A stretch of 64,000 nucleotides of DNA from Marsupella aquatica (Eukaryota; Plantae; Marchantiophyta): NCBI GenBank assembly GCA_973895155.1, contig OZ316894.1, forward strand, positions 5,418,944-5,482,943. Direction: 5' to 3'. The position numbers and the translations under genes were made by a program. The notes under the pieces were generated by a model. The model ran no database searches and was not told the origin of the DNA. It was given only the letters and a program-made list of their open reading frames with translations. Numbering within the stretch: position 1 is the stretch's first letter; each line of letters opens with the position of its first letter. Of this stretch, positions 19,412-52,185 are shown piece by piece.

Positions 19412-19669
19412 TGTTAACGTTACGTCCGAACTCTATTTCTGTGCTCTCCTCATTACTCTGATAGTACACTTCCATTAATACATTCTTACCTAACCTCACT
19501 TAGTGATTTAATTACATTCGTTAGATCTAGGGCTAATTAGTCCTACGGCCAGATTTGGCCTACAGTTTAGTTAGCGTTGTGCCTTCCCTTTCCACTGTAT
19601 ATAGTTGTCCCCTGCCGGGATCTCCGTGTTCAATTCATTCTTTTCAATCAGTGAAGCTAATTTCTTTCA
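19412..19669 (+). repeat. Copia 5' LTR
   Basis: tgttaacg...tttctttca, followed directly by the PBS. Confidence 0.95.
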
Positions 19670-19773
19670 TGGTATCAGAGCGGGCCCGCATCGATCCCCC
19701 GCATCGATCCCCTGCTTAGTAGTGTGATTACTCTGTCGGTGAGCATCTCCCAATCAGTACAGGGTTACACACG

Positions 19774-24224: not shown

Positions 24225-24423
24225 CAAATCACTCAGGTCAAATGAGTCCTCGCTGTGTCTCTCAACTTCAATCAATCTGAATTCTACTCTGATTGGATTC
24301 TACTGCACTCCGTTCCGACTGCTGGATACGAGGGGGCATCATTGAAGGCCCTGTTTGCTATCGAACTGCTTGTGCTGCAATTGCATGCTCGTGCTGCAAT
24401 TGCAATGTTCGGACGCGAGGGGG

Positions 24424-24681
24424 TGTTAACGTTACGTCCGAACTCTATTTCTGTGCTCTCCTCATTACTCTGATAGTACACTTCCGTTAATACATTCTTA
24501 CCTAACCTCACTTAGTGATTTAATTACATTCGTTAGATCTAGGGCTAATTAGTCCTACGGCCAGATTTGGCCTACAGTTTAGTTAGCGCTGTGCCTTCCC
24601 TTTCCACTGTATATAGTTGTCCCCTGCCGGGATCTCCGTGTTCAATTCATTCTTTTCAATCAGTGAAGCTAATTTCTTTCA
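24424..24681 (+). repeat. Copia 3' LTR
   Basis: Copy of 19412-19669, preceded by gcgaggggg PPT and followed by the TSD. Confidence 0.95.
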
Positions 24682-28641: not shown

Positions 28642-30505
28642 CTAGCGCTGGCAAGCTGGGAGAGGACTACCGCACAGGCCAGGATTGCCGCTGAAGGAAG
28701 AGGCCTTAAGGTTGGCAAAACCCGGTCCTTGAGGGATCGGTCCGGTCAGCAAGTTGTTTGCAAAGCTCGCGTAAAGATAGTTTTGCAAGGAGGCCAAAGA
28801 CTGGGGGATTTCGCCACTGAGCATGTTGTCGTTCACCGTCAAGTGATAAAGAAGTGTCCAGTTCCCTGGAGTCGGAGGGATGTTCCCGGATAGGTTATTG
28901 AATGAGACGTCGAAATAACTCAAATTTGCCAAATTGCCAATAGTCTGAGGTATCGGTCCTACGAGAATGTTGTTGTCCAGGGCGAGGTTTGTCAGTCTCG
29001 AAAGGTTGCCCACAGAGCTGGAAATTGTACCAGAGAGCTTGTTACTGTTCAAGTAGAAGTCCGTAAGGCCTGACAGGTCGTACAAGGACTCGGGAATGGG
29101 ACCTGAAAGCTCGCAGCCGCCGAGGTAGATGTACTCGAGCTTGGATCCAAGGTTGCCAAGCTCTGGTGGGATCGAGCCAACTATCCTGTTGCACATTTGC
29201 AATCACCAGGAATTGCAATCAAAATTCAGCGACATAATGACATTGGCTTCGGTTAGTTAGTTCTGCTTCCCTGCAATTTAACATGTTTTGATTTAATGAA
29301 TTTTCTGTTGGAAAATACATTCAATGTAGCTTTCACCTAGCTGTGTTACTTTTGATTTCACTTAATTGGGTTTGATTCACTTAAACTTTGGTGTGCGTAA
29401 CTTAATATATCGATCGCTAGATCGGTTAACATGTTTTGTCAAGATCTGATTTGCCATCAATGAGTCACTCAGAAACCAGCAGTACCAACCTAAGCATGTT
29501 CAAGAAGGAAGGTTCATGCAGAACCTGTAAGCAAGAGGTGGTGTTGCTAAAATGGACAGAAACGGACGGAGGTCGCTTACAAGTTGTCACCCAGGCTCAG
29601 CCACGAGAGGTTGATCAGAGACCCATAGGATGTGGGTATGTTGCCCGTCAGCGTGTTAGTGCGCAGATCAAGGTGCTGAAGCAGCGTCAAGTTGCCAAGC
29701 TCCGGGGGCATAACCCCTGAGAGCTGCTTCATGCTGCCTAAGTCCAGATATGTGAGATATGCTAGCTTTCCAAGCTCTGCGGAGATTGTGCCTGTCAAAC
29801 AACCCCACTTACAGATGTGAACATAAACTCCCACATTTTTTGGAGAAATGCTTCCCACAAAGATCACTTCAGTGGGAGGATTGAAAACTCCGTACGTTGC
29901 AAGAATCGATCAACACCTGATCAATTGTTGTCAGATTCCTGCACTTTCTATTCTCTAAATGTGTATTTTCCACAATCATCCTCTCCCTTCCTTCAACAAT
30001 TTCTTTACTCCGTTACATTTGGGATAACATTGTTATCTGCTAATTCATTCCTCTCGCTAGCTAAATGTACAAATTTGGGCGGGCCATTTGTTCATCCGCA
30101 ATGAGATATATTACAATCCCTTATTAAACATTACCATCTTCCCTTTAGGAGCTTCTACTCTTTATGTTGCAATTGGTTGAATGGAATGGCAGTTAACACC
30201 AAGACATTCAGTACAGTACCTGTGAGATAGATGGTATTGTCGTCGAAAGCTGGGTCAGGTCTTAAATTCAAGCTTGTCACATGGCCGGCAGCATCACACA
30301 CAACATTGTACCAACTGCAACAGTCGAAGGAGGCATTCCAGTTTCCAAGGATGCCAGTCGGGTCAAATGTGATCCCTGTCTTGAACGCGGCGAGGGCGTC
30401 GTTATCCACTTTCTGACAAGTGGTGGCTACGGCACATTGGAGCCCTGTCGACAAGCCGAGGATGACGAGTAGAACGGCGATTATGACTGATCCATCTCGT
30501 GCCAT
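28642..30505 (-). CDS. Secreted extracellular LRR protein (LRRNT_2 + plant LRRs, PGIP/LRR-only type; no TM or kinase); exons 30505-30220, 29791-29581, 29185-28642
   Basis: Signal peptide, then DNDALAAFKTGI..WNASFDCCSWYNVVCD, repeated LxxLxLxxNxLxGxIP and a terminal cap FSGNPGLCGSPLPAC. Confidence 0.92.
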
Positions 30506-33016
30506 GATGACAAGCTCTCCGTCAAACAACAGATTAGAAGCTGGATTCACAATAGACGAAGCTTCACACGGATTTAAAGATGGGCACGGACGGGCAGCTG
30601 CAATAGAATTGAGACCCGTTAGACTACCTGGCCAATACAAGAAATGAGCTTTAATTTAGGTAGCTGGCAAAGTTTCTCGAGGATGGTCTTTCATCCACTA
30701 TGGGTGAGTGAGAGCTCGCACTAATTTAGCATTTTCTAATCAATGTGAAACGCTCTAATTCAACCTGTCCGTGTACGGTATAAATCTGTGCCATAATGGT
30801 ATGACACATTCTAATATGTTTTGGTCACCGAACAAAAGTTACCGAGTATTGTGATTGAATAACACCACATTCGCACAGACTAATGAACATGTGAGATCAC
30901 ATATCTATAAGATTAATGTGAATCCTTGATTATGCGAACCAGACGCCTACTCAGCTTCTCCTCAAGGGGGATCCACATGGATTACTATCCCATTGAATTT
31001 GCCCAATATCACCTGATAGATTGAATCACCAGTCCAAATCGATGCAGCGATCTTGAGTAAGGAATGGAGTCACTTTGCGAGCTACCTGCAGACGTCAGAT
31101 ACGGCTGAAGATGGGAACAGAACTCTTATATAGAGGGATCCATTTCTTCCAAACCACAAACTCCGAGAAAAATCGTACGCAAAATTTCGCAAGTATTGTG
31201 AAATTTGTTCTGATCTCTTTTCGAAGTAGTAGCGCGAATGAAACAATCAGAACAATCCAAATTAAATCCACCTCGGCGCCATCATCAGGTCAGTAACTTA
31301 CCAATGAGGAGCGAACAATGCAGGGTGTAACAATGCAGGGCAGAACAATGCGAAGCGAACGTGCAAATGCCTGGGTGTATCGATGCTTGTTCCCTGTGTC
31401 ACAATCGGGCAGCAGCCTGACTAGTACTGTCAGTACATACTGGAGCAGACCAAGTCCAAGCTCGGTAGCCTACTCACGTATCGTATCAATGCGCAGGATA
31501 TGAGATGAAACGTATCGACTAGCGAGTGCATATCCTTCCTTGATTTTGTACAGTTGTCGCTAGTCGGTACATGCTGGAAGACATTCCTTGAATATGTAGA
31601 GTAAAAACATAAGGACAGACGATGGAAACGATGATTTGCAGGACACAGCACATTACTTTGTCTCCGTAAGCCCCGTATTTTACTTTTGTACATTGTCAAA
31701 GGCGATGATATTGATCTAGTATATTTTACTTCGGGACTGTTGCTCTACAGACGACAGGAAAAGCCGAAGTGTTGAATGTCCGTAATGACATGCCTGCGTC
31801 AAATTCATGCCGGTAAATTGAAGCATAGACTATGGTTCTCCACGAAAATCTTTGGGTCCGACTTCATCGAAACTGACGGACACGGAAGAGTGGGTGAAAC
31901 GGAAAAATAAAACGTATAAGTTTACTGGGAGAGAGGAATTGGTCAAACAAAATCACAAACACGTATTAAGCGGGATATTAAGTCAAGATGGGAGAGAGAT
32001 GACATTTGCGACAGGCTGGAGTGTGGAAGAATACGTTCACACTTTGAATGTGATACGTGGACAAGCTGCTGAAATCATGATACCACCTTTGCTGAAACAA
32101 GGCTTAGTTAAGTTTTCAGACCAATTCTTATACTTCTCAGGTGAAACCAAACTTGAGAGTTACTGCATTTTTGTGACATTTACAACGGAGTACAGAATAT
32201 GGAGCACAGGGAATGTACCTACCCATGTCTTTGGCAGGCTTGGGTGGAGCTACCTAGCCGCGGCTGATCAATCATCCAAACTTAGAATTCTGAATTTGGG
32301 TGGCCGAAGGATATAGAGTACGTAATCCACGTACGTATAAGAGTAAATAATCCGTCACACGTACGTGGCAGCTCAGTCGTCGATGCAATGTCAAACCACA
32401 CCCCTGATCTTCTCATTGTTTGAGTTCTTGACTTGTTTTATTTGTTTTGTTTATTTGCCTGCCTTAGCCTGTTCTAGTTTTTGTCTATCAATGTGAAGCG
32501 AAGAAGAAATTTACATTTCCCCGTTGTTTGTTATTTCTTGTTTGGGGAGTAGCACGACAACTTTGAACCTACTATGCAAACCGATGAGCCCCTTGAAACG
32601 TGGTGCACTATCAGCCTGAAATTAACCAGTCTTTACTGAACGCAAATGCTTTATTTAGAAATTATTCACACCGTAAATCTGCAAGCCAAAGATGAAGGAG
32701 ATGGCTCCTTTCATGTGAGAATAATCACAATATGCATAAGATAATGAAAGAAAGGTTTGACTGTTGGACGGAAAGTTTACAGGACTTGATTAGGATTCTG
32801 AGCTCCTATTTACGCAAGATTTAAAGTGAAGGACCAGTGTACATACGTACATGATTAAATGTTACATATTTACATCGAAAACTCAATAGTAGATACTTCA
32901 CATTCCCTTTTATAAGCTGGTGTATCAGGGGTCAAGCATGTGGGAATCTTCAGTTTCAGGAACTTCTGGTAATATTTGTTGCAGCCTACTCCTGCAAACA
33001 AATGATGGATATCCGA

Positions 33017-36000
33017 TTATCGCATGTTGAGAAGGAACTGCGCCGGTTGTTCAATGAGCTGCTTCCATTTGTTGCAGAGTCTGGCCACTGTGGCCCCATC
33101 AACTACTCTGTGATCAGCACCCCAGGTAACCTGCCCATTTCAAGCCAAAGAATTTTTTGTCAGAAAGATCTCATCCTTTCTTCTCATCCTTGCGAAAAAC
33201 AGAAACATTACTTGTGATTGTATTAGAGAGTCCCTACAGCTTCGTGAGAGTCGAGAATCCAGTTGGATCTTCTCACCACCTTTCTATTAGTTGCATTTCA
33301 GAATCCTACAACGTATCCCACATGCCTCTGTAGATCACAAGCTTTCATTCAATTAATTTCTGAGGTGCTGTTACGCATCACATTTATTGACGGGTTCTTG
33401 TCCTTCATGGACTTACTCCTGAAATGAAACTACAGATACATGAAAAGAGCACAAAAGGTTGGGAGATTTGTGCTTCGTGACTTACACCCATAATGCTGGC
33501 AGGGTAAATGCTGCCGTCTTGTGCATATTGTGGCAGCTTGTGTATTCTTCCAATGGCCACAATGGCAACCTCTGGAAGATTCAGGACTGGTGATCCATAT
33601 TTCCCTCCAATTGCACCAACGTTTGACACCGTGATGGTGCCTCCTGTGACATCCTCACTACATAGCTTGTTTGTTACTGCGAGCTGAGTCAGACGGTACA
33701 GCTGCTCGGCGATCTACAACAAGAAATGAGTTAGATATGTTTACCCAGACATGAATACAGACGGGACCAAACAGCCAAAGGCTGAGACAGCCCTTACTTA
33801 ATAGAGCTCTTTAGGAAGATATCCTTCGAAGAAATATCATTGATCGGAACAGACAGTAGACGACGATCAGATGCACCTACACCAGGTTTTCTATACTTAT
33901 ATGTGAGCCTTCACATCAGTGGTCAATGTGTTCCAGGACGAGAGAAAATAACCCTACGAAAAAGTAGCAGACTGGCCGCCGTCAACAACAAGAGAAAGCT
34001 AATACGTCAGATGCTTACTTCAGGCACGGACAAATTCTGGACATTCTTGATGTTCGGAACAACGAGCCCAGCGCTGGTGGCAATGCCCACTCCGATATTA
34101 TGTGATCCTGAACAACTCCAGAAGTACTCCAAATTTTATGCGTTAGAAACTAAGCCACAACCAATAGGGGCAATAGCTACAAATCATTAGCTTGACATAA
34201 AGTAAGACTTACGAGGGAAAAAACCACAACATCGGTATTTGGGTCAGGTGAAGTGATCTCTACCGACAATATAAGCCATGCAATAATTTCAACATGGAAT
34301 TGTCGGCATCACAATACATGAACAGATATAGCAACAAACTCATTCACTGAGGACGTAAAGCCAGTAGTAACTCTTGATACACACCTCGCTGTGTGATCTC
34401 TGAAATGTCTTCATTTACAGTACTATTCATTAGAGGATAGTCTTTCAAAGCTAGAGAGAGAGCCTTGAGCAGAAATGGCAGGTATGTGAGCTTCACTCCC
34501 CGCTCCAAAGTCATATCCTTGAGACTATCCTTGAGCTGTACAAGAGCATCAACGTTGATGTCTTCTGTATAGTAGAAATGGGGAACAGCAACAGCTGCTG
34601 TCATTGCTTTAGCCATTATCCGACGAAAACCCCTGCAGATATTTCACATTAGCTAGGCCCAACAGATATTTAAAGATCTTCCTGATGTTCAAATTCCAAA
34701 GGATATCACTCTGCAATCGACCCTTAATTGGTCTCTTTGAGTTCAAGCTGGATTTATGCAAAACACAAACACACCTGACAGGAATTATCTCGTCTCTTCC
34801 CAGCACGTCCTCAATGGCAGGTTTTATTGCAACCGACGCCTTAACATCACAATCGTCCTCGGAAAACAATTTATCCCCCGTTGATATTCGATCATTCACT
34901 TCGCTATCAGAATTCGGGGAGTCTGGTTCAATTGCTCGGATCTCTTCATTCAACTCCTCCCTGGACATGACAAACTTCAGTACATCCTCTTTGAGTATTC
35001 GTCCATTATTGCCACTTCCAGGTACATCAGCCAGATTGATACCATAACGCTTTGCCAACTGGCGAACTGCAGGTATTGTTTCAATCCCCTTTCCTGCCAT
35101 TTCTATTCTTGACGATTCAGTCGGAAACTTTGCTGAAATGTCTTCATGTTCCTTTCCGTCCGAAGGACCATCCGATGTAGGACGATTGTTGCTCTCGATG
35201 ATAAGCTCTAGTAATGTCTCTCCAACCTGTAAAGTACATGCAGACGTTGAAATGGATATAAGGGTGAACAATCTTGCACATGCCCATCTTCTGTGAAACA
35301 AGGAATCCGGAACACCCAATCCTCGAGTACTATAGACCAAAAGAATTCCAGTTCCTAGATGTATTTCCATGATATTCAATCCAAATCGAATTCTTCATAG
35401 ATAACTCGCTCTTTCATGCATGCTTTTCATATCGGCTTGAATTTCAAAGCCTCAAAATGAGTACTTATTTCAGACAGCCTGCAAGGGTAGAAAAGCTAAA
35501 TAGACAAAGCTGTTTACAATTTAATAAGCCCGAACTCCTCCGCTTAAGACTCACTGAAATCAAATTCAGGAGTAAAGAAATTTTCAGTAATCTCTCAGGA
35601 GGGGTAATTAATCACCTTCACGATATCACCTGGAATGAAGTTGACTTTTGTCACTTTTCCCTTGTATCGGCTAGTGATTTCTACGCTGGCCTTGTCACTC
35701 TGCACCTCACATAATGGTTCAAATTCTTCCACCTCGTCTCCCTGACTAGATGCAATAACAGGAACATCAGAACTTTCAGCAATACATGATTGCCCGGATC
35801 TGGTCAACATATCATGGAACACTTCCTTGTGCTCATCGAAAATTGACTGGAGTAGAGAGAACTGCAGATGGATATGAATAAACCACAACCACTTTACACT
35901 AGGAATTTCAAATCAAGTTCTCGGCAAGTTTAGACAAAAGCACAAAGCCAATGACGAGAATGTATGCATATGAAGAGAATTTGAAATCTACACGAAGAGA

Positions 36001-39568: not shown

Positions 39569-41281
39569 TGTAATGGTGATGTTGTTGCTCACCACCAACC
39601 CATGCGTCTTTAAGTGCAAAACCGAATGGCAAGACATCACGGCAACCAAGGGCTTGACGGGGAGTTGAGTGGTGGACCTAGCCACCCAGCGCCCTCACCA
39701 ATCCGAGCATTCACGCCTAAGTGCCCCTGGTGCCCGAACGCCTCCACGGAATACTTTGAGCAAGCACCCTAGTGCCTCTTGCACCGCCAGCGGCCCCTCC
39801 CATACGAAGCTGCACTTGCTCTCCAACACGACCGCTACTCAACGGTCCTCACTGTCTGCACAAGCAATCAAGCACCTCGGTAAGTAACCCTTCAAAATCT
39901 AGAACTTGCCAAGTCTAGCCGAGAGTCTAGCATCCTAACTCAAGCTCAACAGACATTGGTAAATAGGTCAATGATAGGTCCTCCCGATGCCATAAGCCAG
40001 AACCAGAACCCACGCCCATTGTTCATCCAGAATAGCTCCTTCCTTGGGCGCGGCCCGAGTTCCCCCTTGTACCTATCCATCACCAACTGACCGCCCTGAC
40101 CCCAGGACATGCTCATGGTGCAAGTAGTGTCGCTTGTCCTAAAGCTTGTCCCAACACGTCGGGACCCGAATGGCCCCGACTCTAGCAAACAACTCCCGAT
40201 TTGCCTTACTGATGGTCTAGGGACCGAACACACTTGGAACTCAACCTCCACACCTACTTGGCCTTGCCTCCCCAACGCAAGCTCCCTTGGGAGACTGAAC
40301 GCGGCTTGGCTACTGTTCGGCAAGATTTGGCAAGCGGGCAAGTTAACATCCACAAATCCCAAGAACCCATGGTGCCCCGGACCCAGATGAGCTCTCCAAC
40401 GCACCCAAGAAGTCCTCCAATGGACTTCCCGTTGGGAAGATATTGCCATTTCCGTTTGGCAGTTTCCCTTAGTGTCGCGACCGCCGTGGCTCATGACTTC
40501 GGCTCGCCCTTAGCCCCCAGGGAGACACCACTCCCCTCGTATATGCTTCTGGAGACCTGCCACCCTCGGACCAGTTTTGGTCCCTAAACATTTGGCCTCC
40601 AACCCGGATCCTATCATGCATAATGGGCACGCCACCAATTGGCAACGCCCATAACTTTCTCGTTAGGCTTCCGCAAGCGGAGTGCCTTAGTTAGCCCGTT
40701 GTGATCGGGCCGACCCACTGCTCATGCCTAGGTCCTCAGGTCTCATCGCTGCTTGGGGCCCCTGATCGGCCCAACCCGGATCGGGCCATAACTTGCGCCC
40801 CAAGCGTCCATTGCCCATGGCGTCAACTCCATGGGCCTTGGGCCCAAGAGGAGCTCACACTCAAGCCCTCAGAACTCAAAGTCCATCCAGAGGTCCAGAC
40901 GATCGTCCTTGAGCCCGGCCCATTTCCTCTTGACCCTACCAGCTCTCAACTAGTCCAAGTCCTTAGTGTGTGTCACCAGCTTGGCTCCTTGCCTTCGCTA
41001 GCGCCACGTCTCGTTGCCCACAAGTCTCCCCATGCTAAGTCCTTCCCGAATGGCCTATCCGGGCCTGGACCATAAGGGAGCTCGGCGTCGGAGTCAGCGA
41101 CGCCGGAGCTAAGTGTTAAGGTAGCCGAGTTCCGCAACTAGTTGGAATCAAGGCAAGGAGTTGAGTTAGGGTTGGGGATGGCTCACTTCACACACTGTCC
41201 AAGTTGGGTGCGCCTGGACCCAAAACCCACGGGTGGTCTCACGGTGGTCCCTCTCAGCTAGTCGTGAGGGCACTCCAAGAG

Positions 41282-41457
41282 TGTCGTGACATATAGTATC
41301 ATAGCCATAGTGTATCGAAAACATACAAGTCACCGGTAATGCATATGTGCAAGCTGCTAGCAACCAACATGCATAGAAAAAGTCCAATCACATTCCCAAG
41401 TGCCAAGAAAAAGCAATTGAGGTGGTATGTACATAGTGGAGGTGTAAACCTCTGTAT
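41282..41457 (-). repeat. Terminal repeat segment A (3'-terminal copy)
   Basis: Direct repeat of 41819-41988 (about 7 substitutions and 2 small indels counted by eye). Confidence 0.92.
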
Positions 41458-41816
41458 ATAAAAGGCGTAAGAGAAACAATTGTACTGAAATTGAATCAAA
41501 AACCGGCAGGATGCCAAGATCGGTCGGGAGCATCTAACGAATCACTGTGTGAATCCCGTGTACGGAACCGACGAGCACTATCTGAGCTCTGCCAACAGCA
41601 ATTCAAGAAGAACTGAAAACCAACAAAGAGAAACACACCCTAAGTAGATCAAGTCAAGGCGTCACACTAGCAAGCACGTTTTGCTTCAAGAACGGCCTAG
41701 ACTTGCTACAAGAACATGACACTAACTCAAGTAGTACACTAGCCCTAACTACATACCTAGCGGGCATGCGAGGGACATGCCGATGTGCACAAGCGGCACT
41801 ATCCCTCGGCATGACA
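41458..41816 (-). repeat. Terminal repeat segment B (internal copy, 359 bp)
   Basis: Direct repeat of 50933-51291 (about 9 substitutions by eye, all transitions). Confidence 0.93.
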
Positions 41817-41818
41817 GT

Positions 41819-41988
41819 TGTCGTGACAATATAGTATCGTAGCCATAGTGTATCAAAAACATACAAGTCACCGGCAATGCATATGTGCAAGCTGCTAGCA
41901 ACCAACATGCATAGAAAAAGTCCAATCACATTCCCAAGAAAAAGCAACTGAGATGGTATGTACGTAGTGGAGGTCTAAACCTCTGTAT
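41819..41988 (-). repeat. Terminal repeat segment A' (directly after the PPT in sense orientation)
   Basis: Repeat of 41282-41457, separated from B by the 2-bp spacer gt (41817-41818). Confidence 0.92.
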
Positions 41989-41996
41989 CCCCCCCC
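41989..41996 (-). other. Putative polypurine tract (G8)
   Basis: C8 on the plus strand abutting the first base of A' in sense orientation, ~30 nt after the PHD stop codon. Confidence 0.7.
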
Positions 41997-42028: not shown

Positions 42029-42181
42029 TCAGGTGGCATGTGGAGCACAGGAACGGCAAAACCATAACTCTTCTAGCACCTGGTTAAGTTCAGGCCGCAG
42101 GCAGAAAAGATGGTACCCTCCATTGCAATTATCACATAGCAACATCTGGTCAGCATCGTCAATTTGCAAACACACTTTTCA
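42029..42181 (-). pseudogene. PHD zinc finger at the C-terminus of the element integrase
   Basis: [C>stop]KVCLQIDDADQMLLCDNCNGGYHLFCLRPELNQVLEELWFCRSC = C4HC3 pattern, in frame with integrase ORF 42179-42943. Confidence 0.9.
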
Positions 42182-43280
42182 AGGGTAGTCCACAGGTGGA
42201 ATCCAGGTAGAAGTCACAATGGTGGGATCCAGGTTAGGCAGATGACAAGGGGCGCAATTCTTGGCATTGTCAGCAATTGTGCGCCCATCTGCCCCTTGTA
42301 ACTCTAGCACTCCAGACGGTCGAATAGCTTTAACCCTGAGAATAGTACGACTGGTAGAGGTGTCCAGGGTGTCGTTAGCTTGCCGCTGCAAGTACACAAA
42401 ATCTCCCACATCAAACTTCCTGACCTTGGGCTGAAAAGTGCCCCCCTCGTGTGTGTGCATAACGCAGTGTGTCCCTATGTTGTGCAATGGCCAAATTCTC
42501 CATGGCCATGGGCATAACCCTCCTGAATAGGCAGCCCTCTCAGAGATCACATCAGACCAAGTCACAGCTGAATCCAAGTCCACCACCTGAAGCATGTGAG
42601 CAGCAATAGCAGAAGGTGGAATTGGGTGAAGACCAAACAACAAGAAGTAGGGAGAAAAGTTAGACAATAATGCATGTCTAGACATCCTATACCCCATGGC
42701 AATGTAGGGTAAGGCCAGGTCCCAATCCTCCTTGTTTTTGGTGAGACAAATCTTCTGGAGACCTTTCTTGCATGTCTGAACCTTGCGCTCTGCCAAGCCA
42801 TCTGCCTGTGGGTGATCTCGTGATGTCCGGCGATGATCAATGAGGGCCTGATCAAGCAGCTCTTGGAACTCTCCTCTAAACTCTAAGCCCTGGTCAGTGA
42901 GACATTCTGCACAAGCTCCAAAGCGGCTGAGAACTTGTTGCAAGAATGCCTAGCTGGTGCTACGAGAGGTCTTATCCGGCAATGCCACAAGTTCTATCCA
43001 CTTGGAGAAATGCTCTATCATGATCATGATGTAGAGATTACCCCGAGACGTGAGGGGTAATTCTCCAACCAAATCACATGACCAGCGATAAAACATGCCC
43101 TGAATAGGGAGTGGATGAAGTGTGGGTTGCCAAGATGTGAAAGAAATCCTCACCCTATCACACTATTTACACCGGGCAATAACATCTCGAACCTGGCCAT
43201 GCATGCCTCTCCAATGATAATGAGGGACCAAAAGGCCGTAAGTCCTCTTAACGCCAAATGACCAAGCTCAGAATGTACCT
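42182..43280 (-). pseudogene. Gypsy DDE integrase (rve), interrupted by a stop and frameshifts
   Basis: VHSELGH.. HHCC region, WSCDLVGELP..IEHFSKW, LTDQGLEF, HPQADGLAER, SPYFLLFG, FDVGDFVYL. Confidence 0.9.
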
Positions 43281-45093
43281 TACGGATAAGGCCAACCCCC
43301 TCATGAATGGGTGGAACCACCACTTCCCTGTCTGGCAAGCAGCGCATGAGATGATTTCCCTTCCACAAGTAACGCTTGGACCTTTGCTGAATTTGGTCTC
43401 TCTGGGTTGCAGTAACATGTATGGGGTACTCCCCATGCTGCAAAAATCTCAGAGTGTCGTTGTCCTCCCATATGTCCACCACAGGTTGGTCAACAATGTA
43501 GCATGGCAGCAAAGCAAGATAGGTAGATGCATGAAATGTAGGCAGGATGGAAACCTGGTCAAAATCCTGCCGTGCATCTGAGGAATCATCGGAGGCAATC
43601 AAAGGGCTGCGGGACGTAGTGTTAGCATTTTGATGTGTCACACCAGGCCTATGAATTACCTCAAAATCATACTCCTGGAGTATGAGCGCCCCACGAGCAA
43701 GCTTGCCAGTAAGCTTGTCGTTGGTCATCAACCACTTCAAGGGCTGGTGGTCGGTGTAGAGGACAAACCTGGTCCCATAGAGGTAGGGCCTATAATGTAT
43801 GACAGCCCACACAACAACAAGGCATTCACCCTCATACGAAGAATAATGACTCTCTGCCTGATTGTTGCTCCTGGATGCATAGGCAATGACGTACTTTTTA
43901 CCTTCCTCATCATGCTGGCCCAGAATGGCACCAATCCCAAGGGCACTCCAATCTGTGTGTAGCACAAAGACCTTGCTGAAATCAGGTCTTCTCAGCACCG
44001 GGTATTCTGAGAGCTTCTCCTTCAAAGTGGCAAGTGCTGCCTCAGCATTTGTACTCCATGTCCAAGTCACATTCTTTTTCAACAAAGCATACAATGGGTG
44101 TGCAATGGTGCTAAAATCTTTGATGTAGATCCGGTAGTAATTGCACAACCCAATAAAACTCCTCAAAGTGTGAACATCGGTAGGAGTGGGCATTTCCAAG
44201 ATGGATACCACCTTGGCCCAGTGAGCCATGGTTCCATTTGGAAGAATGCGGTGCCCAAGGTATACTACTGATCTAACAGCAAATTCACACTTCTTGGGGT
44301 GTATCTTTAGGTTCACCTTCTTAAGCATCATGAATAGCTCCTCGAGGTCAAGTAGATGCTGGTCAAATCCTTTGTTGTGGACCAACACATCATCAATGTA
44401 GCATTTCAGAAACTCAGCTCCTTGAAGAACCTGGTCCATGACTCTTTGAAAGAATATGGGCGCATTCTTCAAGCCAAATGGCATCACCAACCACTCCCAT
44501 AGTTGGTTACTACCATGGAAAGTTGTTTTCTTGCGGTCCTTTGCAAGCAGCAAAATCTGGTTAAAGCCTTGCCTTAGATCCACAAGAGTGAAGATGTCTG
44601 AGTTTCCAATCCTGTCAAATAGCTCCTTTGGCCGTGGCATGGGGTACCTGTCCTGGGGTGTGACCAGGTTCAGTGGCCTGTAGTCCCTACACATGCGCTT
44701 CTCTGTCCACAATCCACTCGAATCCTTCTTTGCTGGCATCACTATAGCTGCTGCAAAATCTGATGTAGATGGCTGAATAAGACCAGCTTCATATAACTCT
44801 TGGCACCTCTCATCCACCAGCTGCCACTCATGCTTACTCAAACGATGTCTCCGCCTGAAGATAGGTGTTTCATCAGCCAACTCAATGGAGAACTGCATGG
44901 TCTTGCACTTACCCAAGTCCTTCATAGAGAAAGCAAACACGTTCTCATGCTTGAGGAGCAAATTCAGCAGCTGGTCCTTCTGTCTTTTACTCAGGTGGTT
45001 GCCCATGATGAATGTGTAGTTGGCAACACTAGGAATAGGACCTGATGTACTCGTGCTTGAAGAGCCAGAAGTGCTAGCCTCTCCACTGTCCAA
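43150..45093 (-). CDS. Gypsy reverse transcriptase + RNase H (part of decayed polyprotein)
   Basis: RMCRDYRPLN, DLRQGFNQI, VMPFGLKNAP, YIDDVLV, LRSFIGLCNYYR, LHTDWS, YEGECL, YTDHQPL. Confidence 0.95.
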   Translation of the reverse strand: MDSGEASTSGSSSTSTSGPIPSVANYTFIMGNHLSKRQKDQLLNLLLKHENVFAFSMKDLGKCKTMQFSIELADETPIFRRRHRLSKHEWQLVDERCQELYEAGLIQPSTSDFAAAIVMPAKKDSSGLWTEKRMCRDYRPLNLVTPQDRYPMPRPKELFDRIGNSDIFTLVDLRQGFNQILLLAKDRKKTTFHGSNQLWEWLVMPFGLKNAPIFFQRVMDQVLQGAEFLKCYIDDVLVHNKGFDQHLLDLEELFMMLKKVNLKIHPKKCEFAVRSVVYLGHRILPNGTMAHWAKVVSILEMPTPTDVHTLRSFIGLCNYYRIYIKDFSTIAHPLYALLKKNVTWTWSTNAEAALATLKEKLSEYPVLRRPDFSKVFVLHTDWSALGIGAILGQHDEEGKKYVIAYASRSNNQAESHYSSYEGECLVVVWAVIHYRPYLYGTRFVLYTDHQPLKWLMTNDKLTGKLARGALILQEYDFEVIHRPGVTHQNANTTSRSPLIASDDSSDARQDFDQVSILPTFHASTYLALLPCYIVDQPVVDIWEDNDTLRFLQHGEYPIHVTATQRDQIQQRSKRYLWKGNHLMRCLPDREVVVPPIHEGVGLIRKVHSELGHLALRGLTAFWSLIIIGEACMARFEMLLPGVNSVIG

Positions 45094-45308
45094 GCTGCTA
45101 GCATGCTACTGATAAGGTGATGAGGCCTCTCCAAGGCCTGTTGTATCTGTTGCTCTGGTCTGATCCACACCATGAAACTCAGAAATAATATCAGCCACGT
45201 TACAAGGGACCTCCTCCCCCCCAACACTTGGACTGAAGCGGTGAGTGTTGAATAGAGGTAAGTGCACTTGGTCTGGATGCCATGTAGCAGCACCATGGAG
45301 TGGTAGGG

Positions 45309-46649
45309 CTAAACTCCTGATGCTGGATGAATGTACATCTGAAAAAGGATGCAAGTGACCAGAAGCCAAGTGAGAGCATTAAGATCCATTACCCTGCCAA
45401 GTAAAGCATTCCTGGCCAGCTTGGTGATTTTGGTGTGGCATGTAGTACCGGGTTGGAAGCCCATAGCCCGTTCTCTCTCCTCAGGACTAGGTTCATCCCA
45501 TGTACCGGTAGAATATCGGTAAACCAGGCCAAGACCATCACCCTGAAAAGCATGTGCACCTGGAAAGGACACAAATGTAGGCCAAGCAGCACGGGGCTGT
45601 CCAATGGTATAATTGGCTGGATACCAAGGTGCTGGCTCTTGCCGTGTAACTGGTTGGCAAGAACTGTCAAGATCCAAAATCTGGTCCACTGTGAGGTTAG
45701 TGTCCCTGGATGTGTGGTGAAGAGCTAACTCCAACAAGGAAGGTGGTGCAAGGTTAGTCCAAAAGTTACAAAGACAATGTGCATAAGAACCACAGTGCAC
45801 TGCATCAATGAGAAGGGGTGGTCCCAAGTAGTGTTGGACCACACTGAAATCCTCTTTGACCTGTGGACGCTGGTCAAACTGAGATGGAGTATTCTCAATG
45901 ATATAACCAACAACAGGATAAAGGGATTGAGCCCAGGTGAAAATCTGAACCAATGCTGTGAAAAGGCCAGAACGAGAATCATGCAGTCCAGCACCGTGAC
46001 CAACAGCTGAAAACCCTTGGCATTCCCAACCAGCTATGATCAAATCAAGGGAGCCAAGAAGGGTTAAGTGCCGGTGCTGGACAAGCTGGATATCTGGAGG
46101 GAAGAAAGAAAATGCAGACTTCCATGCACTGTGTGGAAACTGCTGGGGAAATCGCTCTGAAAATTCCAGCAGACGGGATTCAGCCACTTGCCTTGCACCT
46201 GGATCAATGTCCACGTAGATGTACTGCTTCACCACCATGCCAGACTGTAGGAGAGCTTCCAGGCCTGTAGAAATGCCACCAAAAAGCTCAAGCAATGTAA
46301 GGCCATCCGGAGCAGGAGTCCATGTAACTGGTGCGCTCAAGATTGGGGCTATTGGCTGTCCATTGTGCTGCCCAAGGTCTTCAAACTTGCGCAATGCAGC
46401 CACCAAAGGTCCATGGGCTGCTTGGAGCCGTTGTACCACCTCTGGTTGATGATCCACGTTGCTGGAAAGTGCTGCTATACGTGCAGCAGCATGTGCAGCA
46501 GCATGTGCAGCAGCCACCTCATCGTCATCCTCCTCAATCCAATCTTGCAATGGGTGGTTGACATAGGTAGTTGTGTGCACTGCTTTCAACACACAGTGGT
46601 GAGCCATAGGTGTATGGGCACCATGCAAATCAAGTGGAATGTATCCCAA
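45309..46649 (-). CDS. DNMT3-like C5 cytosine DNA methyltransferase domain inside the retrotransposon polyprotein (between protease and RT)
   Basis: Motif I LELFGGIS, II YVDID, III DIQ, IV IAGWECQGFS, V DSRSGLF, VI IIENT, VIII IDA..AHCLCNFWTNL, IX EERERAMGF, X ARNALLGRVMD. Same frame as the protease ORF, separated only by one TGA. Confidence 0.88.
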   Translation of the reverse strand: MGYIPLDLHGAHTPMAHHCVLKAVHTTTYVNHPLQDWIEEDDDEVAAAHAAAHAAARIAALSSNVDHQPEVVQRLQAAHGPLVAALRKFEDLGQHNGQPIAPILSAPVTWTPAPDGLTLLELFGGISTGLEALLQSGMVVKQYIYVDIDPGARQVAESRLLEFSERFPQQFPHSAWKSAFSFFPPDIQLVQHRHLTLLGSLDLIIAGWECQGFSAVGHGAGLHDSRSGLFTALVQIFTWAQSLYPVVGYIIENTPSQFDQRPQVKEDFSVVQHYLGPPLLIDAVHCGSYAHCLCNFWTNLAPPSLLELALHHTSRDTNLTVDQILDLDSSCQPVTRQEPAPWYPANYTIGQPRAAWPTFVSFPGAHAFQGDGLGLVYRYSTGTWDEPSPEERERAMGFQPGTTCHTKITKLARNALLGRVMDLNALTWLLVTCILFQMYIHPASGV

Positions 46650-46667
46650 GTGTGAGCCATCAGTATG

Positions 46668-47786
46668 TCAATCAACTCTGTAGTATGCATGCTCATGCCA
46701 GTTGTCAATGGTAAAACCTGGTGGGAACAAAGCCTCCTGGCCAATGAGCACATCATACGTAGTGGCATTGGTAACCAAACATCTGACTGGGAAATGCAGT
46801 TCCTGAATTGTACCTCCATTAAAAGTGAGAGTGAGTAAAGTAGAACTCTCACCCAACACATCCTCCACAGTGCCACTAGCAGTCCGAATATGCCACCTGG
46901 ATTGCTGTAAATGATTAGTCAGCAGTCCCATCTTCTTGGCGGCAAACTGAATGCCCAATATCACTGGTTGAGCACCTGTGTCTAGCATGACCATCTGAGG
47001 AGTGTGACCCTCCAACTTGACCGTTGAATTCCTATTGTCAACAATGGCAATGGTGGTGGAAACTAAAGTCCTGTCACTAGGCACCACTTTTGGCAAATGA
47101 TGAGGTACCTTGTGAAGGGAGTTAATGTCCACGGTCTTCCCACTCAACAGCATAGCCAAGAAAGATGGACCAACATGACCAGAATCCAGTGTAGCTCTAG
47201 TCACACAATCTGCAGCAATACTGTCATCTCTACCACTGGAAATTGGTACTGGGATAACCAAACCAGTGGAAGCATGTAATGGAGAAGAAGAAGGTCCAAT
47301 ATGTACATGAGATTGGACCTCCAAAACCGCTGTCACAGGGGCTGATGAAAAATGCAGTGAGCCCTCTAGCGCTCTGATGACAGCTCTAGCATCCAACTGT
47401 AAATCATGGCAACTGAAAAGTGGAGTTGTAAGAATCCTTTGTGCCATACCAGAGGTGACATGCTCAAGCAGCTTAGGAGAAACAACTCCCTGTGAAATGT
47501 CAGCAGCACCTGGTGGTGGAATGGATATAGCTGCAACTCCCTCCCCCCTCGCCAACAAGGTGCGCTCTTCAGCGAGTGTGAGTGGCTGAAAAGATTGGGG
47601 CATGATAGCCCGAGCTCCCCTGGCTCTAGTCATAGGACCGGCAGCAAGACCATCAGCCTGTACAATTCGACGTGTGGGAGAAATACGGAAGGCAGCACTG
47701 GAAGTTGGTAAGCAAAATAGGAAGGGCAGAATGAATCTGAAAATTCTGTTGTAAGGCCAGGCTGTGTAGCAGAGGACAACACACAT
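46668..47786 (-). CDS. Retrotransposon aspartic protease region
   Basis: VMLDTGAQPVILG, IRTASG, YDVLIGQEAL. Confidence 0.85.
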   Translation of the reverse strand: MCVVLCYTAWPYNRIFRFILPFLFCLPTSSAAFRISPTRRIVQADGLAAGPMTRARGARAIMPQSFQPLTLAEERTLLARGEGVAAISIPPPGAADISQGVVSPKLLEHVTSGMAQRILTTPLFSCHDLQLDARAVIRALEGSLHFSSAPVTAVLEVQSHVHIGPSSSPLHASTGLVIPVPISSGRDDSIAADCVTRATLDSGHVGPSFLAMLLSGKTVDINSLHKVPHHLPKVVPSDRTLVSTTIAIVDNRNSTVKLEGHTPQMVMLDTGAQPVILGIQFAAKKMGLLTNHLQQSRWHIRTASGTVEDVLGESSTLLTLTFNGGTIQELHFPVRCLVTNATTYDVLIGQEALFPPGFTIDNWHEHAYYRVD

Positions 47787-47899
47787 TCACCCATATGAGC
47801 ATCAAATGGCAAGCCATAGAAAGAGCGGGGTAGAGGTGCTGAACTATCAGTGATGCCTGGGCCAAGGATCGATTGCATGTGACCAACCGATTGAGAAGG

Positions 47900-49429
47900 A
47901 CCAGCAGAGGCAGGTGACTTGCCTTTGATGTTGGCAAGTTGGGCACGTAGGGACTCAACCTCATGAGTCAGAGACTGGAGTTGAGTTGCTTGTGCGTTGT
48001 GAGCCTCCTTCTGAGCTGGTTGCTTCTGTGGCTGCTTGGGCGATTTGGTGGCACCGGGTGCTTTACCACTGGAAGGAGGAGCAACTGAGGTAATAGGAGC
48101 CCTCCTAGCTGGTGGGGGAGTGGAAGTAGGAGCAGGATGAGGGGTCTGCTGTCATAGCTGCTTCCTCTCTGGGAATTTGGCAAAACAAACTGCCTCCAAG
48201 TGGCCCACTTTCCCGCAAAAATCACAAGACAGGTCCTCAGTAACAATATCACATTCATTAGCCTTGTGATTGGGGTTACCACAGTAGTTGCAAGATGGCA
48301 ACATGAAAGCAGCATGGGCTGGCTTGGTCTTGGAACCATACTGTGGCACACGGGAAGGAGTGGCCAGTGTAGGGGCAGCAGCCTGGTACCTGGATCGCGA
48401 TGGACGCGCAATACTGGCCTCATAATGTGCATGGGCCAACTCAAGTTTCTCAGTAGTGTCATAGACATTGAGCAGGGTGTAGCTGTCTCCAAACTCTGAG
48501 AATACTTGCTGCAACACTTGCGAATGGAGAGCTGGTGTGCCCTCCAATGCGCAAAGATAGCGATGAGCAGCTTCCAAGTCAGTGATGCTCTGGTTGTCCT
48601 TCAGCTTGAGAAGTCGGTGATACATCATCTTCAATGTTTCATCCCGCTGCCTCACAAAGGTGGCCAACTGCATGATTTTGTCAGCACTCTTGATTGGGAA
48701 TTCCAATTCAAGAACCTAGAAAAACTCAGCCGCTGGATCAGCAAAGGCAGGAGAATCAATTGTGGGAGAAATGCCTGATGTAGCCTGTGCCAAGACAGTG
48801 GGAGTAACTGGCGTAGTGGCAGGAACTGGAGTAGGAGGGGAAGTAGCAGGAGCAGCAGCATGGGCTGCAATGGCATTATGTAATGCCAATTGTGAGGCAG
48901 CTATAATTGCACTAGCATAGGTAGGATTAGGCAATTATGTGACAGCAAGCAGCCGTTGAGAGTGCTGCTCATACACATCCAAAGCCTCATGGTGCACATA
49001 CCTGGCTAGCTGCTTAAATGCAAAAGCATTTGTGAAATTGCTACCGTACTTCAACTCCAATTCGTAAACGACAGTGTAGAAAGTGGATTTGAACTCACAC
49101 AAAGAAACAGTGCCTGGCCGCCCGTTGAAGCGCTCAATGCAGCCAGATGAGTGGCTAGCATCCATGCTGTATGTCGGTGAAGCTGGAACAACCACTGATG
49201 CAGAAGGGGTAAATGGCAAGGAAGTGATAGCAGGCTTCGGGGTAGTGGTGAAGCGACCGCCAAATTGAGCAGAAGGATTACATGGTGTGGGTGCTGATGC
49301 TGTCTGCGGACATTGTCAAAATTGCCGAGACTCCAATGAAATTGGCACCAAGGGTCGTGGATCACTCCGTAAGTGGTACCTGGGTGTTGGTGGCGATGAA
49401 CTGCTACCTCCTGGCTCGTCGGCTGACAT
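47900..49429 (-). pseudogene. Gag of the DNMT-gypsy element (probable ATG at 49429), broken by stops and frameshifts
   Basis: MSADEPG.. in frame with IERFNGRPG..; QRDETLKMMYHRL; two CCHC knuckles CNYCGNPNHKANEC and CDFCGKVGHLEAVC. Confidence 0.8.
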
Positions 49430-50919
49430 GCTGCATGCTCACCCGGGGTGCCAATGGGAAAGAAATTGACAAGAAAAAGGAGTGGCAGCCCCAAGGCTCG
49501 GAAATGAAACCCACAAAGGAAACAAACGGTGCAAGGCAGCAATGTGTCGAATGTGTAAACACACAGAAAAACCGTCACGGAGAAAAATTGTCGGCAAAGA
49601 ATAGACCCTTAAAAACTCCGGAAAGGTCTAATGTTGGCAGCAATAAAGAAATCCGGGAAAAGAAAATAGAAGTGGCCCCCCTTTAAGTGTATACATCGGG
49701 GCCCCCCTTAAGTCTATGCATCGGGGCCCTATGTGGACCCAAAAATTGGCAGCCGGCCGGCCGAGTGTGTATACACACTCGTAGCACACGGCCCTATGCA
49801 GTGGTAGTCGGAAGGGGATGGAAAGAGGTGAGGAATTACTATGGCCGGTGAGGGAAAGAAATGGGAGGGCACGATGCGCTATGTACATACAGGTTGCGGA
49901 GCACAAAAGGCATAAGGAGGAAAAAGCAAGACGAAGCAAGGCGAGGGCAAAAGGAAAGAAACAGCCAAAAAGAAGAGCATTGGGCCCCTCTTAATGACTT
50001 GGGTTGTGCAGCATAGGGCTTTGCGCCCCCCCTTCTCCTTATGAGCTCCCAAAGAGGGAGGCTACGAACTCCCCCTCAATCCCCTCCTTAAATGCTTCTG
50101 TGGGCCTCGTGCCCCGGTGAAAGTACTCCCCAGAGAAGGGAGTCAATGTACTCTCCCTCCCCTCTTTAATTCAGCACAGGGCCTCCTCTTAATGCACCAT
50201 AGGGGCTTGCGCTCCTGCCTTGGCTCCCCCTCCCCCTGCTTTAATTGTAGCATAGGGCCTCGTGCCCTACTTTCGCTTCCCCTCCCCTCCTCTAATGCCC
50301 TGTAAGTTGGGCCTCGTGCTTGGCAGGACTCCCGAGAGAGGGAGTCGAATGTACTCCCCCTCCCCTCCTTAATGTTGCTTAGGGCCTCGTGCCCACTCCT
50401 TCGCTGCTGCCTGCCTCAGCTCTGTCTCCCCCCTCGCGCTTGTGCTCGGCATGATGCCCTATGCGCAGCCTGCCTTATGCGATCGGGAGGGAGGCGAAGG
50501 GGAGTCCACAGCGGAAATGGCAAAAAAGAGAAAAATGGGGCGCGCGGTCGGAAGGAAGTGGTCGCGCGGCGGCCGGGAGGTGGTCGTGCATGGCTGGAAA
50601 CAAGAAACGCTGGAAAGGGGCAAAAACGCAAAAGAAAAAGGCAGTCGACAGCAAGTCGGTAGTCGATGCGTAGGCGGCAGTGACAATCAAAGGCAGAACA
50701 TAGCAGAAGGGGTCACGAAGGTAGCCGGGAACAAAAGCACGGGCTCAAATGGGGATGTTAGGTGTATACACATAACACCACATTAAACCCATAACTTTTA
50801 ACCCACCATTCCAATGCTGCTCAAAGAAATTGCACCAGCTTCAACGGAAATTGTATGTACCGACCTAAGCAGCTGAGACGAGAATGTCTCCTATCTTCTT
50901 CTCCTCACCACGAACTTGG

Positions 50920-50934
50920 CAGTTCTTCTTGAAT
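50920..50934 (-). other. Putative self-priming primer-binding site
   Basis: cagttcttcttgaat (50920-50934) is the exact reverse complement of attcaagaagaactg (51076-51090) inside B'. It abuts the inner end of B', and no TGG tRNA-type PBS directly follows B'. Confidence 0.7.
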
Positions 50935-51291
50935 AAAAGGCGTAAGAGAAACAATTGTACTGAAATCGAATCAAAAACCGGCAGGATGCCAAGATCGGTC
51001 AGGAGCATCTAACGAATCACTGTATGAATCCCGTGTACGGAACCGACGAGCACTATCTGAGCTCTGTCAACAGCGATTCAAGAAGAACTGAAAACCGACA
51101 AAGAGAAACACACCCTAAGTAGATCAAGTCAAGGCGTCACACTAACAAGCACGTTTTGCTTCAAGAACGGCCCAGACTTGCTACAAGAACATGACACTAA
51201 CTCAAGTAGTACACTAGCCCTAACTACATACCTAGCGGGCATGCGAGGGACATGCCGATGTGCACAAGCGGCACTGTCCCTCGGCATGACA
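50933..51291 (-). repeat. Terminal repeat segment B' (5'-terminal copy, 359 bp)
   Basis: Repeat of 41458-41816; starts TGTCATG on the minus strand. Confidence 0.93.
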
Positions 51292-52185
51292 AGAGTAGTA
51301 TAGTGTGAGGGGGGGAGGTGGCGCAAGGCGCAAGGGTGAGTCAAGAGGGGAAGTTGCTCAGGGAGTTGCCTTGCCTCGAGTGTTGGGGAGGGAGTGCGCT
51401 AGGCAGGATTGAGTCGAGATCGAGGAGGGAGTCAAGAGGAGAGTTGTGAGGGGAGTCGTGACAAGAGGGATTTGGGAGGAGCAAGGGGAACTGGGGTTGT
51501 CGTGCGGAGGGAGGCAGACATTGTCAGGGCCAGGTGGGAGGCGTATGTCAGAGGCAGTTGGGGCTCGGTTGCTGTAGCCTGCATCCAAGGGATGGCATGT
51601 TTTTTTGGTTGCTAATCCTTGGTTTTTTCTGCGTTTCAATTTCCTTCATCCAATATAGCCCGGCATTTTGAATGACGACCACGCCATAAATTGGCGCAAG
51701 AGTGTATTATAGTTTTTAATATATTGTTGCGCTAGTTAAGTTAGGGTAGAGCTTTGGTTGAGGGCAAATGTGAGGCGCAAGGGGAGGATTGACATGCCAA
51801 ATGTGGGATGCAGCATCAAGGATACCTCACCCCTCCTTGTCATCCATGCATGTGGAGGATGAATTAAAATTCCTTCAATTAAATTACTGTATTTTCCTTG
51901 CGTCATCTATCACATTGTGTTTAATTAACCTCCTTCAATTAAATCATTATCATTATCACATCTACTACTATAATACCCTATCCGGCCAAAAGTGGTGTAT
52001 TGTTCGTTTACAAACTCACTTTTGGAGAGAACATTCTCTGACCATTGGATTTATACTCTCTTTTATCCTGGCCTTTCATTATTCAAAAAGCAATCTCCGT
52101 AATCCAAAGGAGACAAGACAATTATTTTGATATACCACAAAGATTCTGTAGGAGCGAGATATGGCATACGGTCTATGTGAGTGCC

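Follow-up and report, generated by a model that had tools for sequence, protein, structure and literature searches.

Introduction

How a retrotransposon of a land plant comes to hold a DNA methyltransferase within its polyprotein, whether the domain is maintained there and what part it may take in the life cycle of the element are the questions raised by a stretch of 64,000 nucleotides from the liverwort Marsupella aquatica (contig OZ316894.1; hereafter the window). An initial annotation, made from the sequence alone, placed a DNMT3-like cytosine methyltransferase domain (DNMT) between the protease and the reverse transcriptase (RT) of a retrotransposon and regarded it as a land-plant representative of the kind of element reported from Klebsormidium. 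KnitGypsy-Dnmt3 of Klebsormidium nitens combines Gypsy domains with DIRS-like repeats (de Mendoza et al., 2018, PMC5890265; this and the other works cited are represented here by the portions consulted). Its domain gave no methylation in yeast, a result that the authors call inconclusive, while the domains of SymbioDIRS-Dnmt3, the only retrotransposon DNMTs shown to be active, carry out de novo CG methylation in yeast; what purpose DNMTs serve in retrotransposons is described as unclear (PMC5890265). Elsewhere, “streptophytes (Gypsy-DNMT3)” are treated as a separate, earlier-described acquisition (bioRxiv 10.64898/2026.05.21.726589), and a Gypsy element of Chlamydomonas is described with a PHD finger and, in the portion consulted, with no DNMT (PMC9940879). 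A literature search, with subscription papers, Repbase and theses lying outside its scope, found no report of a land-plant or chlorophyte Gypsy-Dnmt3 nor any circle model proposed for gypsy elements with split repeats; the portions consulted of PMC11244446, PMC6673714, PMC10952607, PMC2864245 and bioRxiv 2021.11.30.470311 held nothing on the family. Here, we describe the window element as a dead Ty3/gypsy copy with a conserved DNMT3-type domain, which belongs to a family that is likely self-primed, likely integrates from a two-LTR circle opened internally and would methylate CG on its new DNA; this account, taken as a whole, seems to us on balance probable.

Results

Architecture and Decay of the Element

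The DNMT is embedded between protease and RT of a Ty3/gypsy element of about 10 kb occupying positions 51291-41282 of the minus strand (Table 1). No match to a chromodomain was found in the element, and a PHD finger is present. Compared to long open homologues, the window copy is interrupted by stops at 48937, 48718, 48154, 46670, 45108, 43165, and 42952, by frameshifts near 47715 (47705-47726), 45310, and 43255 and by additional indels near 42529 and 42441. Because of these many stops and frameshifts, and because both arginines of DNMT motif VIII are replaced by cysteine, the window copy is dead. Related copies detected in four runs are without the stop at 46670 and show an indel difference at 45310. 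Coverage by such copies is far lower over the 5′ untranslated region (49700-50870), which contains short internal repeats, than over the rest of the element, and this region therefore varies between subfamilies.

A separate, deeply covered repeat (40500-41280) abuts the 3′ end of the element, with no Pfam match in four frames over 39949-41072. Farther away in the window, a young copia-like element (19412-24681) is bounded by 258-nt repeats differing at two sites, and host gene exons are discerned for a SABATH methyltransferase (1490-2200), an aspartyl-protease-like protein (26240-26722), an LRR protein (28642-30655), and an E3-binding-domain protein (34609-35394). For the SABATH exon (1664-2110), identity reaches 74% with Calypogeia fissa, falls to 54% with Marchantia paleacea, and does not exceed 50% with flowering plants, which makes a leafy liverwort the likely host.

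Table 1. Features of the Ty3/gypsy element in the window, ordered along the minus strand.
Feature	Position	Strand	Evidence or remark
Left 4-bp target-site duplication	51292..51295	-	Identical to 41278-41281
Repeat A1, begins TG; likely promoter part and R-U5	50933..51291	-	97.5% to A2, 9 transitions
Predicted self-primer, first 13 nt of predicted RNA	51078..51090	-	Perfect complement of 50932-50920
Primer-binding site, directly after A1	50920..50932	-	Complementarity; also at A end of other copies in runs X2-X4
Gag with CCHC knuckles	47705..49165	-	60% to Calypogeia protein P0202; PF00098
Aspartic protease (LDTGA)	46671..47090	-	PF13975, E 4e-6
Protease-DNMT linker, less constrained	46314..46667	-	48% identity to moss-type copies; shared-change ratio 0.67
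DNMT3-type C5 methyltransferase domain	45333..46313	-	PF00145, PDB sequence matches, motifs, fold of relative's model
Catalytic Cys of DNMT	46020-46022	-	Motif IV
ENT of DNMT	45888-45896	-	Motif order
Motif VIII of DNMT, decayed	45768-45776	-	Both Arg replaced by Cys
Reverse transcriptase (YIDD)	44218..44952	-	PF00078, E 1.5e-27; best PDB match Ty3 RT, E 3.5e-65
RNase H	43650..44055	-	PF17917, E 6.7e-35
DDE integrase (zinc finger, core, C-terminal part)	42182..43300	-	PF00665 in two pieces
PHD finger, end of pol	42047..42178	-	PF00628, E 4.3e-12
Polypurine tract (G8), adjoins B1	41989..41996	-	Sequence
Repeat B1, ends CA	41819..41988	-	7 mismatches in 167 aligned bases to B2
Internal junction of B-end CA, 2-bp spacer (41817-41818) and TG A-start; inferred integrase att site	41810..41828	-	Sequence, recurrence
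Repeat A2	41458..41816	-	Match to A1
Repeat B2, flush with A2 end, ends CA	41282..41457	-	Match to B1
Right 4-bp target-site duplication	41278..41281	-	Identical to left

Identity of the Methyltransferase Domain

The domain lies in a minus-strand frame open from stop to stop over 45309-46667 (452 codons), the DNMT proper making up its last ~330 residues (about 46313-45333). This frame matches Pfam PF00145 with 23.9 bits (E 3.4e-5), just above the curated cut-off of 22, and the best PDB sequence matches of the domain are to DNMT3A, with E 3.3e-4 for the single sequence and 5e-19 for the family profile. The structure predicted for a moss-type relative (P0002; 52 sequences, pLDDT 87.9) resembles DNMT3A with TM 0.82 by target length and E 1e-15; modelling of the window domain itself, which is decayed, from 19 sequences gave a poor result (pLDDT 64.8). 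By the profile match, the DNMT3A matches and the fold of the relative, the identity of the domain given in the initial annotation is borne out, as is its place between protease and RT by the domain order. Its further statement that DNMT and protease share a frame across one stop is confirmed, with the stop at 46668-46670, whereas that of a single frameshift separating DNMT from RT holds for the frameshift near 45310 and overlooks an additional stop at 45106-45108. Likewise, from the series of motifs I-VI and VIII-X said to follow in order, motifs I, IV, VI, IX, and X do so, in unrearranged succession and in an intronless domain, but the arginines of motif VIII are lost.

Relatives, Range, and Phylogeny

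Confirmed DNMT-bearing metagenome loci numbered 551, and the best 80 of them, all found via the DNMT itself, were examined. On contigs of sufficient length and without interruption, protease precedes and RT follows the DNMT, and DNMT and RT share one frame in 56/67 loci. All loci except one (79/80) resemble named Sphagnum proteins, with median best identity of 73-85% vs. 60% for the Calypogeia protein. Longer homologues include the Calypogeia fissa protein CAM6101866.1, where gag, protease, DNMT, and RT form one open frame (DNMT 78% and RT 81% identical to the window), many gene models of Marchantia, and proteins of Closterium, Klebsormidium nitens (GAQ93235.1, with the same protease-DNMT order and 35% identity over the whole domain) and the chlorophytes Tetradesmus and Scenedesmus. 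A profile search gave 453 clusters at E under 1e-30, of which the best 150 were examined.

Two layouts are encountered, one with the DNMT before RT, where all named members are streptophyte, and another with the DNMT between RNase H and integrase, where both named members are chlorophyte; the DNMT phylogeny (98, FastTree) separates them, as does a quick RT tree with 34 rows (86). The second layout is represented by a large sister group (P0140-P0157 and P0294, with Tetradesmus deserticola and Scenedesmus sp. PABB004 as named members). The window copy groups with Calypogeia and the moss-type copies (100/100), and copies from Marchantia fall elsewhere, bryophyte copies making up at least two separate lineages. 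A single clade of all bryophyte copies was rejected (p-AU 4e-11, for a group defined after inspection of earlier trees). Window and K. nitens sequences stand within one 31-row group (100/100) as opposed to two non-LTR rows, in a tree with an open backbone and no plant host DNMT3 included. Both old diversity of the family and transfer are possible.

The view of the element as a land-plant representative of the Klebsormidium kind is sustained by the same domain layout, repeats, and purifying selection: KnitGypsy-Dnmt3 is also described with an intronless Dnmt3-type domain in Gypsy pol, DIRS-like repeats, and purifying selection (PMC5890265). The two differ in that the window element resides in a land plant and has GWECQ vs. 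GFPCQ, and they do not appear as sister lineages in the tree with its open backbone; moreover, the portions consulted of that description mention neither self-primer nor att site for KnitGypsy-Dnmt3, nor any target duplication or PHD finger (PMC5890265). EpiLTR and DAM-LTR are likewise Gypsy elements with DNA methyltransferases, but their DNMT is DNMT4-related and is accompanied by DAM and a chromodomain (bioRxiv 10.64898/2026.05.21.726589). SymbioDIRS-Dnmt3 has in common with the window element the DNMT3 in pol and A-coding-B-A-B repeats, while possessing a tyrosine recombinase and DIRS RT as opposed to DDE integrase and Ty3-type RT (PMC5890265).

In the virus collection only weak phage methylase matches were obtained for the DNMT (L081-L086) and none for RT. 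The prokaryote collection yielded one locus, L087 (CADCWO010000201.1), a eukaryotic Gypsy-Dnmt3 element in a bin named “uncultured Synechococcales cyanobacterium”, where its presence is likely contamination; a 127-nt terminal overlap of this contig suggests a collapsed repeat. Its Gag-protease-DNMT frame ends with TAG followed by CAATCA (L087:3486-3497), RT continuing in frame. This arrangement fits a read-through signal of CARYYA type. In Marchantia, in the P0129 cluster, and in L087 the DNMT ends the Gag-protease frame, which terminates at a fixed place after it, and Gag-like, particle-level amounts of the enzyme are therefore suggested. The same DNMT type is also carried by the non-LTR-like proteins P0160 (with RNase H), P0161 (with RT, PHD, and PCIF1_WW), and P0163, which suggests domain exchange between retroelement classes.

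Catalytic Motifs and Selection

Motif VIII of the window copy reads AHCLCNFWTNL, both arginines being replaced by cysteine encoded by TGT. These arginines are required for catalysis in HhaI and DNMT3A. In the 80 loci, which were selected with patterns spanning motifs IV and VIII so that conservation counts there are biased upward, arginine is kept at the two positions in 52/78 and 54/80 cases, the catalytic cysteine is present in 79/80, and the residue before it is E in 73, K in 7, and P in none, though the search pattern allowed P. Among 147 new representatives taken from the best 150 clusters, by means of a profile that favours E at the motif IV position, GWEC was found in 66, other E forms in 12, GWPC in 39, and other variants in 17, while 13 were unparsed. 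GWECQ also occurs in long ORFs, for example in Calypogeia (CAM6101866.1) and Closterium proteins, while GWPCQ is exemplified by Marchantia Mp4g09160. Thus, the label “atypical” attached to this motif before does not hold; GWECQ is the state of the family and not decay. The supposition that the window copy retains a working active site is not supported either, since its motif VIII departs from the set of intact motifs expected of an active C5 DNA methyltransferase, a set which the family does possess: across 52 diverse sequences the catalytic cysteine and the glutamate of motif VI are invariant, and the arginines of motif VIII are at least 90% conserved. Glutamate in place of the usual proline before the catalytic cysteine may nevertheless count against the predicted methylation role.

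For the analysis of selection 17 duplicate or outlying loci were removed and 64 moss-type copies were used; C>T and G>A changes were set aside, and those found in at least three copies were considered as shared. The DNMT accumulated 40 synonymous and 18 non-synonymous shared changes, giving a ratio of 0.14 that lies under the Ka/Ks threshold of 0.2 and indicates purifying selection. By the same measure integrase scores 0.09 and RT 0.15; RNase H, gag, and protease fall at 0.34-0.42, and the linker reaches 0.67, whereas private changes are near neutral (0.73-1.03). Between the window and the loci, pN of the DNMT is 0.21 and pS 0.75, the latter being saturated. Because the shared-change ratios of DNMT and RT are 0.14 and 0.15, the active lineage has retained its DNMT as strictly as its RT.

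CpG in pol amounts to 0.27 vs. 0.56 in the neighbouring copia. In L001 the observed-to-expected CpG ratio is 1.45 in B vs. 0.34 in pol, and the B end of this locus (L001:14430-14520) contains a 15-bp unit in tandem together with clustered CpG adjoining the att junction, pol being CpG-poor. CpG depletion as proof of self-methylation was dropped, being confounded by age and host methylation, and a position-specific difference in CpG between B1 and B2 was not significant (best p 0.057, overall 0.35).

Split Repeats and Target Sites

The element is arranged as A-internal-B-nn-A-B, with TG..CA termini and a 4-bp target duplication, its A and B repeats differing at 16/526 aligned sites. Among 36 loci reaching B (duplicates included), B-A-B is present in 16, B-A in 2, and B alone in 18, with the reservation that short-read assembly may homogenise or collapse repeats, since L010 and L031 share one site and differ in end structure. 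For the same reason, interpretation of A-internal-B forms as products of one-LTR circles was dropped, both forms being found at the one site. Target duplication in 19 loci was exact in 10 by script and, by eye, in L015, where the end had been placed 4 bases off; it matched in 3/4 positions in five and failed to match in three; the duplicated sequences vary among loci. Contigs from relatives of the host leave the element at exactly 41282 for unlike flanks (9-12 per run in 4/4 runs listed) and do so also at exactly 41816 (8-11 in 2/4 runs listed). The CA-nn-TG junction, searched with a pattern derived from the first examples, was matched 18 times with spacers GC (8), GT (6), and AC (4), and it recurs in L087, the DNMT of which is only 42% identical.

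Over 11 elements, minor states common to the two B repeats of the same element (B1 and B2) were counted 62 times, as against 31.6 (maximum 51) in 1000 shuffles, and both repeats are therefore likely to originate from one template. In 2/11 elements B1 lacks one of the 15-bp units present in B2; the A lengths of these two differ (293 and 313), so the slips are likely independent.

Probable Self-Priming

The complementarity between the predicted RNA start and the primer-binding site (PBS) of the window copy extends over 13 nt, whereas none of 5000 shuffles exceeded 10. Three unrelated primer/PBS pairs of 12-13 nt are found, one each in the window, L001, and L087, every primer matching its own PBS, which amounts to covariation in three lineages. 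Pairing of at least 10/12 at the expected place was found in 17/27 moss-type copies, the A end being mis-set in ~7 of the non-pairing ones, and a TATA box is located 31-32 nt upstream of the primer in 16/27; at the expected place in the window copy no clear TATA box was seen. Folding of 50900-51092 does not give the primer helix, which forms when the RNA starts at 51090. In having a PBS by the LTR end that is complementary to the predicted RNA 5′ end, the element agrees with Tf1/Sushi and Tcn1, self-primed Ty3/gypsy elements that use no tRNA (PMC6317226), and it differs from these in possessing a PHD finger with no chromodomain match, permuted repeats, and DNMT cargo.

Discussion

Proposed Replication Route and Its Alternatives

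Self-priming as in Tf1 combined with plus-strand priming at the G tract would, with high probability, produce linear DNA having one B-nn-A unit at each end: as A ends exactly at the primer site and B starts exactly after the purine tract, B-nn-A is the unit that reverse transcription is expected to regenerate. The two ends would then be joined, and integrase would nick both strands of the left CA-nn-TG, in each case behind CA, and insert the opened circle, a step that we consider likely. The flush seam of A2 and B2 could be accounted for by such joining of the right end of linear DNA to the left one, and the integrated form would correspond to a circle of two units that was cut open at its left CA-nn-TG and lost the two spacer bases. 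The ends left by a 2-bp staggered cut at CA-nn-TG are those that retroviral 3′ processing produces. At IS3/IS30 circle junctions, too, a DDE enzyme cuts open ends that abut with a short spacer between them, but the inferred cut site of the window element is inside the reverse-transcribed repeat and not at the joined-end seam. The same likeness and the same difference apply to foamy-virus integrase, which cleaves 2-LTR junctions (PMC1180852). The circular route has to date been associated with tyrosine-recombinase elements and with the IS circles of bacteria; that a self-primed Ty3/gypsy group, ranging over green plants from chlorophytes to liverworts and mosses, relies on a circle alone for integration, via an internal att site and by means of DDE integrase, is rather probable.

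A symmetric circle is expected to contain two identical att sites, yet the mirror arrangement, with B upstream of A1, was found in 0/35 A1 copies from 30 distinct sites, and the circle model therefore needs an unexplained bias. This absence is accounted for if no free circle exists and the RT jumps from end to end upon completion of the plus strand, or if the cut-off left B is moved to the right end in the integration complex, so that only the left att is reachable; the flush A/B seam and the homogeneity of B1 and B2 are preserved as well. Such a route has no precedent that we found in the literature consulted and its final DNA is identical to the circle product, so that the present data cannot separate the two, and we consider it rather unlikely. 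Within the circle model, methylation gating would explain the missing mirror product: a packaged DNMT may hemimethylate the first duplex with its CpG-rich att site, the mark guiding integrase in its choice between the two identical sites, although we give this idea little credence. Insertion by a tyrosine recombinase, as in DIRS/PAT-type elements, is suggested by the split direct repeats typical of PAT/Ngaro elements (PMC7192593), but the Ty3-like RT, the DDE integrase, and the TG..CA ends with varied 4-bp duplications point elsewhere; no tyrosine recombinase family matched in 28 other frames in or beside the element, and with target duplications and integrase refuting it this origin is extremely improbable.

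The DNMT may most simply be seen as an enzyme that methylates the new DNA inside the particle, a role already put forward in 2018 (PMC5890265). Protease would free the enzyme in the particle, new DNA would be methylated before integration, and the copy would arrive with host-like CG marks, a sequence of events for which we see the chances as evenly balanced. Instead of acting on new cDNA, the domain might methylate or bind chromatin at the insertion site together with an integrase-PHD complex or serve as a non-catalytic module for DNA binding or packaging. The PHD finger (PF00628) being a chromatin reader, the position of the DNMT between RNase H and integrase in chlorophyte relatives and the inactivity of the tested Klebsormidium domain in yeast (PMC5890265) speak in favour of this, whereas the conservation of catalytic residues in the 52 sequences fits catalysis better than binding alone, and the ending of the Gag-protease frame after the DNMT in Marchantia and L087 suggests amounts appropriate to the particle; we find such a function doubtful. 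That the domain is merely a passenger, a host DNMT3 fragment captured by chance, could be imagined from its closest solved structures, which are DNMT3A/B. However, it is intronless, it is 66-78% identical to element copies (Sphagnum-type loci, Calypogeia) vs. 25% to fish DNMT3, and purifying selection along with distribution from chlorophytes to liverworts (in trees without bryophyte host DNMT3) refutes the capture, which is left with hardly any probability. The initial annotation had named absence of the segment from other copies, together with its derivation from a captured host DNMT gene fragment, as grounds for abandoning its reading; the DNMT, being fixed in pol and under purifying selection, is no such fragment.

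Implications

If the preferred circle route is true, a DDE integrase opening an internal junction would constitute a different way of insertion for LTR elements, and methyltransferase cargo would be linked to circular intermediates across unrelated retroelements. LTR finders that need twin LTRs (a criterion used in PMC6317226) would likely miss the family. Copies with open frames in Marchantia polymorpha (an 18-member cluster, several of them on the V chromosome) bring the question of DNMT function to a genetically tractable land plant. In bryophyte annotations, element-borne copies also swell the number of genes counted as DNMTs. Literature matches for the Marchantia gene ids of such DNMTs were not found; Mp4g09160, Mp8g17980, Mp6g11220, MpVg00370, and MpVg00540 are element-borne DNMTs annotated as host genes, and one element-borne Marchantia DNMT is called DNA (cytosine-5)-methyltransferase in UniRef.
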